This document shows, piece after piece, positions 40,252 through 61,577 of a stretch of DNA of 64,000 nucleotides. This stretch comes from Gammaproteobacteria bacterium (GTDB lineage: Bacteria > Pseudomonadota > Gammaproteobacteria > UBA4575), in assembly GCA_965243395.1 (NCBI GenBank), contig CBDEUS010000001.1:832001-896000 (forward strand), read 5' to 3'. How positions within the stretch are numbered: position 1 is the stretch's first letter; each line of letters starts with the position of its first letter. A model generated the notes under the pieces. It worked only from the letters and a program-made list of their open reading frames with translations. It made no database searches and had not been told where the DNA came from. The position numbers and the translations under genes were made by a program.

Positions 40252-40279
40252 ATGATTGTTTACGATTCAAAGCGGATAT
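40252..40279 (+). repeat. 28-bp site
   Basis: ATGATTGTTTA-CGATTC-AAAGCGGATAT. Confidence 0.75.
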
Positions 40280-40329
40280 CTAAGTGAAGCATGAGTTGCA
40301 ACAAAAGTATTCGGACTATAGGCAGATCA

Positions 40330-40779
40330 TCATGATGATGATTTTTCAGCGAAGTCTTTAAACTGATTCATAAATGCTTGAATTTTCTTTTCTAGCAATT
40401 CAGGCATGAAAATTGTAATAAGTTTGAGCAAAGCGTTAGAACTTGTGATTTCTAAGTTCAGCATCCATATAGTTTTGTCTTCATTACGTTCGTAAAATTT
40501 ATTTTCGACTGAATAGGAAATTGCATCTGTTACATAGGTTGCGCAAAACTTGTTGGGATGATTGTGTATCGTTATAGTTTTTATGATCTCTATATTGCGC
40601 CAGAAAACTTTATGAGTAAGCTTCGATTTAGCCCCGAAGGCAAATCTATCTCCACTACTCATTTGCTTGAAACCAACAAGACTGGGTTGCCACTTAGAGA
40701 GATTCTCAGGATTGAGAAATAACTCAACTACGTGTTCACGTGGTTGATTTATTTTGATTTCATATTGGTTACGCATCAC
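40330..40779 (-). CDS. SRPBCC-family protein
   Basis: IKINQPREHV.ELF.NPENL.KWQP...MNQFKDFAE. Confidence 0.8.
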   Translation of the reverse strand: MMRNQYEIKINQPREHVVELFLNPENLSKWQPSLVGFKQMSSGDRFAFGAKSKLTHKVFWRNIEIIKTITIHNHPNKFCATYVTDAISYSVENKFYERNEDKTIWMLNLEITSSNALLKLITIFMPELLEKKIQAFMNQFKDFAEKSSS

Positions 40780-40944
40780 GTAGCAAACTAAAGAAAGTAC
40801 TAGACAATAATATACTAGTGCAAATGAGTGTTATAACTTATAAAAGCAGGCACTTTTAAACAGACAATAAGGTTGATGTGTCCTCGAACGAACAAAATCC
40901 ATAGGCGTTTGTTGAAAATTGATGCTGAAAAATACTGTGTAAAA

Positions 40945-41130
40945 GACATCCCCAAAATACCTTCAAAATTGTTTGTTTAAATGATTAGTGGAGGCGGCGT
41001 CAACCGGGTAAATGTTCTATCTATCTGAATTAGTTGAAAATAACTATAAGCTATCTTGATTTATACTCCCCAAATATACCCCCATTATTATTGGATTTAA
41101 ATAGACTTTATAGGACGTTATAGGTTTATT
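40945..41130. mobile_element. Island junction 1: island end + tmRNA-like 3' fragment + island end
   Basis: GACATCCCCAAAATACCTTC...TAGTGGAGGCGGCG (40986-40999; one mismatch to the reverse complement of CGCCGCCTCCACCA)...TATACTCCCCAAATATACCCCCA; co-linear with 55173-55227 and 55386-55529. Confidence 0.75.
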
Positions 41131-41158
41131 CTGTTTGCTTACGTCCCAAAACCGATAT
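41131..41158 (+). repeat. 28-bp site, first of the island
   Basis: CTGTTTGCTTA-CGTCCC-AAAACCGATAT, same position in the conserved end as the 55530 copy. Confidence 0.65.
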
Positions 41159-41204
41159 TATTCTTTAGTATAAGAAAATCGCCTGGAAAAGGTGGTATAG
41201 CATT

Positions 41205-41549
41205 ATGAGATTTGAAATAAATAACAAATCTATTGAAACGAATGAACAAGGATTTTTAATTAATCTCGACGACTGGAATGAAGAGGTGGCTTCTCATCTA
41301 GCAGAACAAGATGGGATAAAGCTTTATGTAGATCATTGGGAACTAATTTTATATTTTCGTGAATATTATAAAGATAATTTAGTAAATCCTACAATGCATC
41401 AAATGGTGCTTACACTTGGAAAGCAAAAAGACAAACATTTTCATGACTTAAAAGAGTATGAAAAACACATCTACCAACTTTTTCCAACTGACCCCATCCA
41501 TGAAATATGTAAACTTGCTGGTCTTCCCATGCCACAACCAGATACTTAG
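41205..41549 (+). CDS. TusE/DsrC-family protein lacking the C-terminal Cys
   Basis: ETNEQGFL.N..DWNEEVA..LA...GI.L..DHWE.I...REYY; ends ICKLAGLPMPQPDT. Confidence 0.85.
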   Translation: MRFEINNKSIETNEQGFLINLDDWNEEVASHLAEQDGIKLYVDHWELILYFREYYKDNLVNPTMHQMVLTLGKQKDKHFHDLKEYEKHIYQLFPTDPIHEICKLAGLPMPQPDT

Positions 41550-41555
41550 AAACAA

Positions 41556-41583
41556 TAGCCCTGAATCAACCTAAAGCAGACAT
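41556..41583 (+). repeat. 28-bp site (right arm conserved)
   Basis: TAGCCCTGAAT-CAACCT-AAAGCAGACAT. Confidence 0.6.
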
Positions 41584-41600
41584 GCATTAATATCTCAGTA

Positions 41601-59204: not shown

Positions 59205-59222
59205 TGAATCATAAACTATCAA

Positions 59223-59615
59223 ATGAATAAATCTAATCTAATAAAGTTTGTAGATGTAACAGCATTCATTGGTTTTATATTTGTTGTATCAACCGGCGTT
59301 TTGCTTCGATATGTGTTACCAACCCAAAGTGGTCGTGCAGTCGAATTATTGGGTATGAACAGACATGATTGGGGTGATATACACTTTTATATTACGCTTA
59401 TATTTTTAATCATATTGTCTATCCACCTATTGTTACATTGGAAATTCTTCCTTCATTTATTTCAAAATGGATTTAAAAGCACTAATACATTCCGATTGAT
59501 GTTAGGAATTGTGGCTTTAATAGCCGTCGTGGCATTAGCGATAGCTCCATTTATTGCACCATTGGAATACTCTGAAACTACTAAAGGACACCAAATTGGT
59601 AAACATAGGGATTAA
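59223..59615 (+). CDS. DUF4405-domain membrane protein
   Basis: STGVLL, RHDWGDIH, IHLLLHWK. Confidence 0.8.
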   Translation: MNKSNLIKFVDVTAFIGFIFVVSTGVLLRYVLPTQSGRAVELLGMNRHDWGDIHFYITLIFLIILSIHLLLHWKFFLHLFQNGFKSTNTFRLMLGIVALIAVVALAIAPFIAPLEYSETTKGHQIGKHRD

Positions 59616-59632
59616 GATAAACTTAATTTCGA

Positions 59633-59660
59633 ATGACCGCAATTGGCCGAAAGTGGACAT
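59633..59660 (+). repeat. 28-bp site
   Basis: ATGACCGCAAT-TGGCCG-AAAGTGGACAT. Confidence 0.82.
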
Positions 59661-59825
59661 AAGCATTTCTATCTAGTGCGACAAATGTTAGATCAGTAGC
59701 TAATCATTTAAATAAGCCTCCCTTTACTCGCACGCTGGGAGGAATATAGGATGGTTTGGCAAAGCAATTTAAAATTGATAACAATTTATAACTTAAAAGT
59801 CACTTCTAAATGAATATGATGTCGA

Positions 59826-60698
59826 ATGGATCAACGTGATACTAAAATTCTACGCATTATTCTCATCGAAGGAATTGCAAACTTAACTGTTTTAATAATC
59901 AAACTGGTAGTTGGAATAGGCACCGGTTCATTAGCAGTGTTAAGTGATGCAGTTCACTCACTTACTGACATCTTCAATAATATTATTGCGTGGTTCGTAA
60001 CACGTCATTCTGTCAAACCAGCAGATACCAGACACCCTTATGGCCATCGAAAGTTTGAAACCGTTGCAGTATTTTCTCTTGCTTCATTGCTAGTAATTCT
60101 AGCTTTTGAGCTGGCTGTCCACGCCATCACACGAGAAACAACTGAAATAACAACCAGTAACATAGAGCTTGGGTTGATGCTTGGGGTACTTGCTATAAAC
60201 TTTATTATTTCAGTATGGCAACGTAATTGGGCTAGGCGATTGAAGTCTGACATCCTTACTGCAGATGCGAACCATACTTTTTCAGATGTGCTTGTCACTA
60301 CAAGTGTTATTGTTGGCTGGCAAGTATCTGCTATGGGTTGGTTTTGGGTAGATAAACTATGTGCCCTGGTGGTAGCAGGATTAATATTTTACCTTGCATT
60401 TGTCCTTTTCAGGAGAACTATACCGGTACTGTTGGATGAACGTGCGATAGATCCAGAGAAACTGAAAGCAGCAATGTTGGAGGTTGACGGCGTACTTGCG
60501 ATACGGAGGATTCGCTCAAGATGGATCGGTTCGATACGGGCAGTGGATTTAGTAATTGAGGTTGGTGCAAAGTTGTCTACAGAAGAAGCGCATGAAATCA
60601 CTGAACGACTCGAAGGCATATTGGCAAATCGTTTTGACGTGCAAGATATTTCTATTCATGTTGAGCCGCACAACTTAGATCCAAAGCAGATATTTTGA
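59826..60698 (+). CDS. Cation diffusion facilitator (FieF-like) transporter
   Basis: SLAVLSDAVHSLTD, PAD.RHPYGH.KFE, ADANHTFSD, IHVEP. Confidence 0.92.
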   Translation: MDQRDTKILRIILIEGIANLTVLIIKLVVGIGTGSLAVLSDAVHSLTDIFNNIIAWFVTRHSVKPADTRHPYGHRKFETVAVFSLASLLVILAFELAVHAITRETTEITTSNIELGLMLGVLAINFIISVWQRNWARRLKSDILTADANHTFSDVLVTTSVIVGWQVSAMGWFWVDKLCALVVAGLIFYLAFVLFRRTIPVLLDERAIDPEKLKAAMLEVDGVLAIRRIRSRWIGSIRAVDLVIEVGAKLSTEEAHEITERLEGILANRFDVQDISIHVEPHNLDPKQIF

Positions 60699-60756
60699 TT
60701 AAGTAAGAAAACGCGTTAATTTATATTGTGTAATTAAAGTATCAAAGAGGTAGATA

Positions 60757-61440
60757 GTGTCTAAAATTTTGATATCCATCTCTTTCATAGCAGGTATTGG
60801 GTTTTACGCTGTTATTCTTTTCTGGCCTGCAGGGAAAATTGACTGGTTAGATGGTTGGCTCTATTTGGGAATTGTCACTGCATATCAATTCATCACTGTT
60901 GTCTATCTCACGCAAGTAAATCCTGAGCTTGTAGAGTATCGATTAAAGTTTGTTGGTATTAGCAAAGGAACGAAGCGATGGGACAAGATCTGGCTAGTTT
61001 TATTTATCCCTTTATTTATATCGATCTATGTAATCGCAGGACTAGATGCAGTACGTTTTGAATGGTCTAGTATGTCGTCTTGGTTTTGGTTTCCCGGGTT
61101 AGTTCTATTTATACCGACTGCGGTTCTCTTTTCCTGGTCTATGGGAGTCAATCCGTTTTTTGAAAAAACAGTACGGATTCAAACAGATCGTAAACACCGC
61201 GTGATCGATACAGGCCCATATCGATTTGTTCGTCATCCCGGTTATGTAGGGTTATTTGGTTGGTGCCTATCCGCACCATTGTTTCTAGGCTCATGGTGGG
61301 CTTTCATACCAGCTGTTTTATCAGTTATTGCGCTTGTGATTCGAACAGCTTTAGAAGATGGAACGCTTCATAATGAGCTTGCTGGATACGAAGAATATTC
61401 AAACCGAGTCTACTATAGACTCATCCCAGGTGTTTGGTAA
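60757..61440 (+). CDS. Isoprenylcysteine carboxyl methyltransferase (ICMT/PEMT) family membrane protein
   Basis: NPFFEKTVRIQ..R.H.VIDTGPYRFVRHPGY, RT.LED..L..EL.GY..Y......RLIPGVW. Confidence 0.88.
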   Translation: MSKILISISFIAGIGFYAVILFWPAGKIDWLDGWLYLGIVTAYQFITVVYLTQVNPELVEYRLKFVGISKGTKRWDKIWLVLFIPLFISIYVIAGLDAVRFEWSSMSSWFWFPGLVLFIPTAVLFSWSMGVNPFFEKTVRIQTDRKHRVIDTGPYRFVRHPGYVGLFGWCLSAPLFLGSWWAFIPAVLSVIALVIRTALEDGTLHNELAGYEEYSNRVYYRLIPGVW

Positions 61441-61497
61441 TAGTTAATAAGCGACATGATAATCACTACAAGGTTTGAGAAGGTCATGCGTTATACG

Positions 61498-61577
61498 AAA
61501 TGACCGCTATTGGCCGAAAGCGGACATTTCCTAAAGTAGTAGAATAGGGTGGTTCACCCCTCTACAAAACCCGCGTC
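61498..61577 (+). repeat. 80-bp direct repeat copy 2, starting with a near-consensus 28-bp site (61500-61527)
   Basis: ATGACCGCTAT-TGGCCG-AAAGCGGACAT + TTCCTAAAGTAGTAGAATAGGGTGGTTCACCCCTCTACAAAACCCGCGTC. Confidence 0.85.

Follow-up and report, generated by a model that had tools for sequence, protein, structure and literature searches.

In the 64,000-nucleotide stretch analysed here (the window; positions 832,001 to 896,000 of contig CBDEUS010000001.1, assembly GCA_965243395.1, from a gammaproteobacterium of the UBA4575 lineage) we found an array of 28-bp palindromic sites, all of one polarity, that separate single unrelated genes. The array is one of 19 clusters of the same site in this genome, and an identical 28-mer is found in several classes of Proteobacteria. 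An earlier note, made from the letters of the window, had described a single integron-like cassette array delimited by sites that are neither attC nor dif. That observation is real but was overcounted, and its interpretation is partly supported; the main gain over it is the scope, a multi-locus, multi-class family of sites. The explanation that we tentatively favour is a gene-cassette system that would operate by site-specific recombination at duplex 28-bp sites, the window holding an old and partly decayed array.

Sites in the window and in the source genome

The source genome (G000; 2.58-Mb, 38% G+C) is assembled in two contigs, C1 and C2, and the window numbering corresponds to C1:832001-896000. 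A strict pattern with up to two mismatches matched at seven positions of the window (nine strand matches), all of them within 44263-61527, and had no match in 100 shuffles. Scoring the window with a weight matrix made from 18 of its own copies would be circular, so the matrix was rebuilt from 54 copies elsewhere in the genome and the window was rescored, with at least 12 bits taken as support. With this independent matrix 15 window positions are supported, all within 40252-61500, and none falls in 1-39500, where the earlier note had likewise seen no clear copy; as a null, 50 Markov shuffles gave a mean of 0.04 matches of at least 10 bits and a top score of 16. The supported copies share a single polarity and all are intergenic. 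The list of 23 clear copies with which we started was therefore too long: 15 hold (the one placed at 51655 truly starts at 51654), two are borderline (47991 with 10.1 bits and 54434 with 9.5 bits), four are weak (41131, 41556, 45039 and 49465, with 2.9-6.5 bits) and two fail with negative scores (47318 and 56524). None of eight further copies called degenerate is supported, the top one reaching 6.9 bits at 47403. Similarly, the run of ten genes said to be bracketed one by one in 41131-46357 keeps 8 of its 11 boundaries at 12 bits or more, while the other three are weak. The array also runs beyond the end of the window, up to C1:901999.

A genome scan at 18 bits gave 127 sites, of which 121 are intergenic and 113 have their upstream gene on the strand of the site. 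Sites follow the stop codon at a median distance of 16 bp, and often it is the ATGA of the site that contains this codon, in agreement with the intergenic, co-oriented, stop-proximal placement first noticed in the window. Whereas one array had been claimed, and that of the window is real, the genome holds 117 sites in 19 clusters plus 10 single sites, and the family spans several classes. Within clusters nearly every gap between genes is occupied, and most of the genome is site-free. The spacing between sites has a median of 556 bp (quartiles 434-834). Polarity is nearly uniform in the five largest clusters (13/13, 17/18, 20/21, 14/14 and 8/8) and is maintained around genes on the opposite strand. 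The claim of co-oriented arrays that bracket single unrelated genes is thus borne out. Clusters start after housekeeping genes (folE, rpoD-tRNA-Met) or after a tRNA-Met at an island edge, with no common neighbour.

The consensus of the site is ATGWCYGCT-N10-AGCRGACAT, and two types of centre occur, A (AACGACCC, 66 copies) and B (ATTGGCCG, 55 copies). Thirteen site pairs lie 73-117 bp apart, and 12 of them are built as B, a 45-55-bp linker with the TTGGAATCAA motif, and A, so that well-kept arrays (those at C1:232-236 kb, C1:281-292 kb and C2:536-543 kb being examples) repeat the order A, gene, B-linker-A, gene. One of the 13 pairs is the window composite at 57090..57190, whose B site scores 11.0 bits on the forward and 12.9 bits on the reverse strand and whose A site scores 46.7 bits; it resembles elements of about 100 bp in 14 of 14 congeners. 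In place of the linker, a 50-70-bp "end block" with a small hairpin comes after some B sites. No target-site duplication was found at the sites beyond chance.

Arm pairing and the nature of the site

The arms of the palindrome do not covary as a folded strand would require. At positions 6/23 we counted 43 Watson-Crick pairs against 50.9 expected in the source genome (n=106), and 447 against 479.5 expected in high-GC loci (n=765), where T6 occurs together with A23 just 16 times in 765 sites; at positions 4/25, 41 of 106 sites of the source genome have A.A. Pairing is therefore not maintained as in a hairpin-forming repetitive extragenic palindrome (REP), Watson-Crick pairs at variable positions being at or below expectation. 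Neither strand is preferred, since T.G and C.A have similar frequencies. The absence of compensatory covariation argues against an RNA stem-loop, a REP-type hairpin and an attC-type hairpin, and suggests that the site is double-strand DNA read as two half-sites by a protein. Within the arms just two variants are common, C>T at position 6 and G>A at position 23, each at the C of a CpG. The rarity of double variants at these two positions may reflect deamination of methylated CpG or the need for one intact half-site.

Degenerate integron arrays, that is, clusters of attC sites lacking integron-integrases (CALIN), or Xer-dependent dif modules of a known kind, would also produce part of this picture. 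The arrays of small co-oriented open reading frames (ORFs) look integron-like, and a 28-bp 11-6-11 geometry together with the presence of XerC and XerD fits dif modules. Nevertheless, we give this explanation very little credence. The attC site is defined by R''/L''...L'/R' boxes (RYYYAAC...GTTRRRY), while here a 28-bp sequence is conserved that has no R''/R' boxes and no GTTRRRY end, and the top IntI score in the source genome (TIGR02249) is 134.9 bits against a cut-off of 265. Sequence rather than structure is conserved, R boxes are missing and so is IntI, which upholds the view that the sites are not attC. Nor are they dif, as had also been stated: the canonical dif (ACTTCGCATAATATATATTATGTTAAAT) sits elsewhere, at C1:959290, and by hand count it is alike to the A-type consensus in 10 of 28 positions. 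It lies near the maximum of the cumulative GC skew, which places the window 63-127 kb from the terminus. Furthermore, the sites form direct repeats, whereas those of plasmid dif (pdif) modules alternate in orientation.

Another reading takes the sites as operators of a conserved dimeric regulator or silencer, which would insulate or repress acquired genes with no recombination at the sites. A duplex palindrome with arms of about 9 bp whose centres are about two helical turns apart, the lack of covariation, the conservation of the sequence across classes and the presence of sites on both sides of accessory genes all agree with it. Still, we regard it as improbable, because it accounts neither for the same site flanking each gene of an array nor for the constant polarity, and because the sites lie at 3' ends abutting stop codons and not in promoters. 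The reading of the linker as a promoter (TTGGAA-N17-YAAAAT) found no support, since it passes a sigma-70 scan in only one of five composites and the region has 8 promoter-like matches against 19.1 in shuffles; no candidate regulator was found, and no terminator-like sites were found in the scanned region.

Site-bearing genomes

The pattern gives 26-174 matches per strand in 13 of 14 congeners and in one sister genus, while the remaining congener and most of the family and class have at most one match; a reversed control pattern has none anywhere. The exact 28-mer is present in at least 119 stretches of species genomes, from Alpha-, Beta- and Gammaproteobacteria and a few others. Among the matches listed, the carriers are Pseudolabrys and other Xanthobacteraceae, Hyphomicrobium, Sphingomonas, Rhizobium, Lysobacter soli, Coxiellaceae, Thiotrichales, a betaproteobacterium, and single metagenome-assembled genomes (MAGs) of Udaeobacter, Binatia and Flavobacteriales. 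It is also found in at least 120 metagenome contigs, 119 of those listed having a G+C of at least 45%, and in 13 viral contigs, which are prophage fragments with the site near the contig end and are uninformative. A complete 4.1-Mb alphaproteobacterial chromosome (G031) carries 66 matches in about 10 clusters. The composite of Alphaproteobacteria consists of three palindromes 17 bp apart, about 119 bp overall. The site loci match the G+C of their hosts, so the common 28-mer does not come from recent bulk transfer. Orphan solute-binding-protein genes are the commonest neighbours of the sites in soil Alphaproteobacteria, with ABC_sub_bind in 68 and TctC in 11 of 252 loci.

In the plasmid collection the gammaproteobacterial composite has zero matches, and the alphaproteobacterial doublet was found in 10 records, all of them single or double sites. 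The exact 28-mer is carried by a few plasmids, among them conjugative IncF plasmids with one copy, the same in Escherichia coli (NZ_CP069974.1, L188 4004-4031) and in Klebsiella variicola (NZ_CP114364.1). This copy, whose centre is B-like in the alphaproteobacterial form, sits roughly 100 bp upstream of a relB antitoxin gene; the accessory segment that holds it is next to IS26. In the open-access literature, which was the extent of the search, we found neither the 28-mer or its halves (apart from unrelated primers) nor arrays of this kind.

Gene content of the arrays

The content and order of the genes between sites differ between species at conserved flanks; the earlier note had proposed such a comparison between strains. 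The OsmC cassette provides the clearest case. It is found in four species in four contexts, both neighbours being unrelated in all of them, and the similarity starts within the upstream site and stops within the downstream one. In the closest congener (G012) OsmC and the homocysteine S-methyltransferase gene are adjacent, in swapped order with respect to the window. This congener also keeps both flanks of the window locus; the interval between them measures 36.3 kb in one genome and 14.6 kb in the other, with no genes in common but OsmC and the methyltransferase. Three neighbouring window genes are found at three separate loci in the congener, two of which have sites beside the gene. Also, a block of three genes (patatin, DUF2238 and Exo_endo_phos) has been kept together with its site at 51654, at the orthologous place in G012.

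Downstream of rpoD-tRNA-Met the source genome has 14 sites; among nine congeners compared, two have other arrays there (10 and 4 sites), a third has 3 sites at a distance of 8-10 kb, and the other six lack them. The block that follows rpoD-tRNA in a congener follows a different array in the source genome. In the best-kept arrays the composites of about 100 bp are 83-95% identical to those of the closest congener, and the genes between them have no homologues there or weak ones. The cargo resembles that of integrons, with SNase, SRPBCC and DUF families and with small proteins that are secreted, membrane-bound or orphan. Of the site-specific gene capture proposed in the earlier note, the variation of content and order between species is supported; no recombinase could be tied to the sites, neither excision nor insertion was seen, and the word "system" is an inference.

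Search for the enzyme

We searched for the enzyme with profiles PF00589, PF01797, PF00239, PF01548, PF02796 and PF00665. The source genome has five PF00589 matches, which are the XerD and XerC equivalogs (TIGR02225 with 401 bits and TIGR02224 with 370 bits, both above the cut-offs) and three P4-type integrases. None of the five falls in the window, as the earlier note had supposed for the recombinase. The Y1 or REP-associated tyrosine transposase (RAYT, PF01797) is absent from the source genome and is present in one of 13 site-rich congeners and in none of five distant site-bearing genomes. HTH_7 gave nothing above cut-off, and no multi-copy insertion sequence (IS) was found in the source genome. 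G031 has no Y1/RAYT, serine recombinase (PF00239), IS110 or rve, and only two PF00589 matches. XerC and XerD are thus the sole recombinases of known families common to the source genome and G031. In the source genome xerC and xerD are each no more than about 3.5 kb from a two-site cluster, a proximity that is probably fortuitous; for the two PF00589 matches of G031 the closest sites are 11 and 21 kb away. In keeping with a gammaproteobacterium, the source genome has the XerD and XerC equivalogs above their cut-offs, xerD adjoining dsbC, DUF484-xerC adjoining hslV, and DsrC-like and sulphur-transport genes.

Clustering of ORFs over 132 and then 252 site-flanking loci, together with Pfam annotation of the recurrent clusters, gave no candidate enzyme. 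A small tyrosine recombinase (4-5 loci) and an IS30-type transposase (3 loci) were considered and rejected, as they occur at too few loci. In three loci (L009 2678-4316, from a Maricaulaceae MAG, L091 and L119) a gene for an IS30-family transposase is found within a few hundred bp of a site, and this IS30-family element may target the palindrome. We also rejected a miniature inverted-repeat element of a DDE transposon, since there is no target-site duplication, no rve or IS110 and no multi-copy IS.

Features of the window and side observations

The sites and other features of the window are given in Table 1. The cassette-like ORFs include DsrC-like, homocysteine S-methyltransferase, OsmC, glyoxalase-like, isochorismatase, DUF454, metallo-beta-lactamase fold, patatin, cytochrome b561, HpcH aldolase and cation efflux proteins, and orphans.

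Table 1. Positions of supported sites, repeats and cassette-like ORFs in the window (bits from the independent matrix)
Feature	Coordinates	Strand	Description
28-bp site	40252..40279	+	20.7 bits; first supported copy; 3 bp past the stop codon of ORF 39868-40248
28-bp site	42556..42583	+	15.3 bits; between homocysteine S-methyltransferase and OsmC cassettes; OsmC homology (4 species) starts inside
28-bp site, A-like centre	43074..43101	+	25.5 bits; abuts OsmC stop codon; OsmC cassette homology ends inside
28-bp site	43490..43517	+	12.2 bits; first bases overlap the stop codon of the glyoxalase-like ORF (gap -4)
28-bp site	44263..44290	+	23.4 bits
28-bp site, A type	44704..44731	+	28.6 bits
28-bp site	45367..45394	+	17.9 bits
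28-bp site, A type, near consensus	45724..45751	+	40.9 bits; one mismatch to the earlier pattern
28-bp site, B type	46330..46357	+	29.9 bits
End block repeat	46358..46407	+	hairpin, then AAAACCCGCG; after B site; 92% identical to 61528-61577
28-bp site	51654..51681	+	14.5 bits; heads the patatin, DUF2238, Exo_endo_phos block
28-bp site	55530..55557	+	17.2 bits
Composite	57090..57190	+	decayed B 57090-57117, 45-bp linker with TTGGAATCAA motif, A 57163-57190
28-bp site, B type	59633..59660	+	34.9 bits
28-bp site, B type	61500..61527	+	48.4 bits; zero mismatches to the earlier pattern
End block repeat	61528..61595	+	after B site; small hairpin
About 33 cassette-like ORFs	40330..61440	mostly +	from ORF list and Pfam scans

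In the end block the hairpin changes on both sides between copies and is followed by AAAACCCGCG. The block recurs at C1:898689, 902034 and 905287 and in a congener, and it marks the right end of the window's locus both in the source genome and in G012. The B site together with the end block folds no more stably than shuffles (z = -0.19). Rfam at gathering thresholds gave zero matches in the window, end block included, and only tRNAs in two well-kept arrays. A loose Rfam match to IMES-3 over the B site and end block (17 bits against a cut-off of 55, E = 0.51) does not respect the structure and was set aside as probably chance. In the gap 55161-55595, before the HpcH aldolase gene, short pieces are 89-93% identical to intergenic pieces of three congeners and may be another small repeat.

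Elsewhere in the genome, a 20-kb island (C1:232100-252695) has tRNA-Met on one side and, by a P4-type integrase gene, a 48-bp, 98%-identical repeat of the 3' end of this tRNA; the best-kept array lies at the tRNA end of the island. Two genes are duplicated with 99.9-100% identity, C1:591742-593121 with C2:1003805-1005184 and C1:559375-560526 with C2:722704-723855. They encode a putative periplasmic-binding-protein-like product of 449 aa, so named by sequence, and a membrane protein of 382-387 aa; the identity spans only from ribosome-binding site to stop codon, with no sites at the ends. The contig ends (C1:1-9348, C2:1-10404, C1:1272337-1279210 and C2:1292134-1299313) consist of long tandem repeats with periods of about 387 bp and about 318 bp. 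These match each other in reverse, so the two contigs are one chromosome split in two giant repeat regions.

Discussion

The cassette system that we propose, with the reserve already expressed, would have as its unit the 28-bp duplex site, in which two inverted arms of about 9 bp would be bound by a dimeric protein. The asymmetric, conserved centre would set the polarity and perhaps the compatibility of the sites (A or B). A site-specific recombinase would pair two sites of like centre and exchange strands within the centre, so that directly repeated sites would release a circle with one gene and one site. Such a circle could re-enter any site of any array, or another genome that has the same "standard" site. 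The actor would be XerC/XerD or a protein not yet described; within this explanation, we consider XerCD an unlikely enzyme. Cassette circles that re-enter would lead to arrays of unrelated small genes, to a content that varies between species and to one site sequence across classes. Recombination at the sites, the position of the crossover and the circular intermediates are what we infer from these patterns.

Several observations weigh against such a system. Neither IntI nor Y1/RAYT, serine recombinase, IS110 or rve is present in the source genome, and none is linked to the sites; recombinase homologues were found in about 15 of the 252 site-flanking loci (8 tyrosine, 3 IS30 and 4 serine). A paralogue search and Pfam annotation of the border genes revealed no gene family that recurs at array borders, XerC/XerD excepted. 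The limited likeness between the genome's own dif and the A-type consensus, reported above, leaves a role of XerCD without sequence support. The 19 clusters and 10 single sites come without an attI-like primary site, and no cassette has a second copy in the genome. Neither excision nor insertion was observed, the comparison of metagenome contigs with a well-kept array being ambiguous: ten contig joints fall at or beside sites, and since their shorter side has 20-32 letters, about the length of the site, mis-assigned repeats may account for them. Sequencing runs under the same species label contain next to none of the words of the array, and contigs from one of them miss even the flanks, so they are given no weight here; nor are the array parts left uncovered in the three metagenomes taken as evidence. 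Of 28 loci in relatives with homologues of six window cassettes, only 11 show a flanking site of at least 14 bits, which means either that sites are gained or lost beside resident genes or that paralogues were compared. The window copies are among the most decayed in the genome; most score 12-30 bits with the independent matrix, and the best arrays elsewhere reach 38-43 bits with the first, window-trained matrix. Finally, sites in high-GC genomes often follow solute-binding-protein genes, with ABC_sub_bind in 68 of 252 loci.

A good part of these observations would be expected if the sites were extragenic palindromes like REP and the bacterial interspersed mosaic elements (BIME) composed of them, selfish or domesticated, that spread downstream of genes and pile up in flexible regions. 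Host proteins could bind them, with a function as insulators or in the control of mRNA or topology, and ordinary homologous recombination between repeats of 28-100 bp, in place of a dedicated recombinase, could shuffle the genes and give the arrays their cassette look. This is a serious rival, which we judge quite possible without preferring it. It agrees with the occurrence of copies at 29 places (19 clusters and 10 singles), with the mosaic composites (B-linker-A in Gammaproteobacteria, three palindromes 17 bp apart in Alphaproteobacteria), with the closeness of the sites to stop codons and with the failure to find a dedicated recombinase. Homologues of window cassettes are site-free in 17 of 28 loci of relatives, assemblies break at repeats, and the frequent position of high-GC sites after solute-binding-protein genes recalls the classical placement of REP. 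On the other hand, Y1/RAYT is missing from the source genome, from 12 of 13 site-rich congeners and from all five distant site-bearing genomes, the consensus does not have the GTAG-type head that is a feature of REP, and there is neither hairpin covariation nor target-site duplication. REP-like dispersal had been named beforehand as a finding that would speak against a capture system; 117 of 127 copies are clustered, and the clusters and single sites together occupy 29 places. The clustering speaks against REP-like spread, which accounts for the many loci and the missing enzyme and leaves unexplained the uniform polarity within arrays, the periodicity of one gene, the lack of hairpin covariation and the absence of RAYT. 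No REP family is known to have an identical 28-mer across classes, and no description of REP elements common to several classes was found in the open-access literature searched. The operator-only and the integron or dif explanations fit worse than either the REP-like repeats or the cassette system.

Returning to the cassette system, its likeness to integrons and CALIN lies in co-oriented arrays of single accessory ORFs, mostly small and lacking promoters. A recombination-type site comes after each ORF and may provide its stop codon, the content varies between species, and the sites are homogeneous within a genome. The differences are that the site is here a 28-bp sequence-conserved duplex palindrome, while integron attC sites have 55-140 bp and are recognised as a folded strand, and that there is no IntI, attI or Pc platform, with many arrays per genome and one site common across classes. 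Alphaproteobacteria, where the site also occurs, reportedly have no integrons. In the XerCD-dependent pdif modules of Acinetobacter, 28-bp 11-6-11 sites also flank gene modules that have no recombinase gene; pdif modules are plasmid-borne, whereas here the arrays are chromosomal and long and the sequence is unlike dif (10 of 28 positions). Chromosomal dif modules are the subject of PMC12907356. With the REP and BIME of Enterobacteria and Pseudomonas the sites share that they are imperfect extragenic palindromes near the 3' ends of genes and form mosaic composites with conserved linkers, and they differ in having no RAYT, hairpin covariation or GTAG-type head, and in forming clustered arrays of uniform polarity that are conserved across classes.

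A further likeness concerns the res site of Tn3. The outer six bases of the arms (TGTCYG / CRGACA) are identical to those of res site I, which is also 28 bp long, as given in PMC4499144; the half-sites here are 2 bp closer, with 26 against 28 bp between outer ends. The resemblance was noticed only in retrospect, could be due to chance and is kept as no more than a lead. Like res, the alphaproteobacterial composite contains three subsites, here palindromic and within about 119 bp, but no resolvase gene is present in the source genome or G031, with no HTH_7 match above cut-off. The mosaic elements of Neisseria (NIME) with their dRS3 repeats are also intergenic arrays whose units are delimited by short inverted-repeat sites that are targets of recombination or integration. 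They are genus-specific and bracket non-coding repeat units, whereas the sites described here bracket genes.

Taken broadly, these sites might define a third and widespread gene-cassette capture system of Proteobacteria, distinct from integrons and dif modules, with a universal 28-bp duplex site of two centres, exchange between Alpha- and Gammaproteobacteria, and XerCD or a new recombinase family as the enzyme; we offer this broader claim as a possibility and with more caution than the explanation of the arrays themselves. If the sites recombine, bacteria would have a second general means of storing and reshuffling single genes, one that integron finders would miss and that would be widespread among soil Alphaproteobacteria and marine Gammaproteobacteria. 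It would also bring cassette shuffling to the reportedly integron-free Alphaproteobacteria and point to a new recombinase or to a new activity of XerCD. In addition, a short, fixed duplex site common across classes would be an attractive tool for genome engineering. Even if the sites are REP-like repeats, a repeat family that shares an identical 28-mer among several classes of Proteobacteria, with no known mobilising enzyme, needs explaining.

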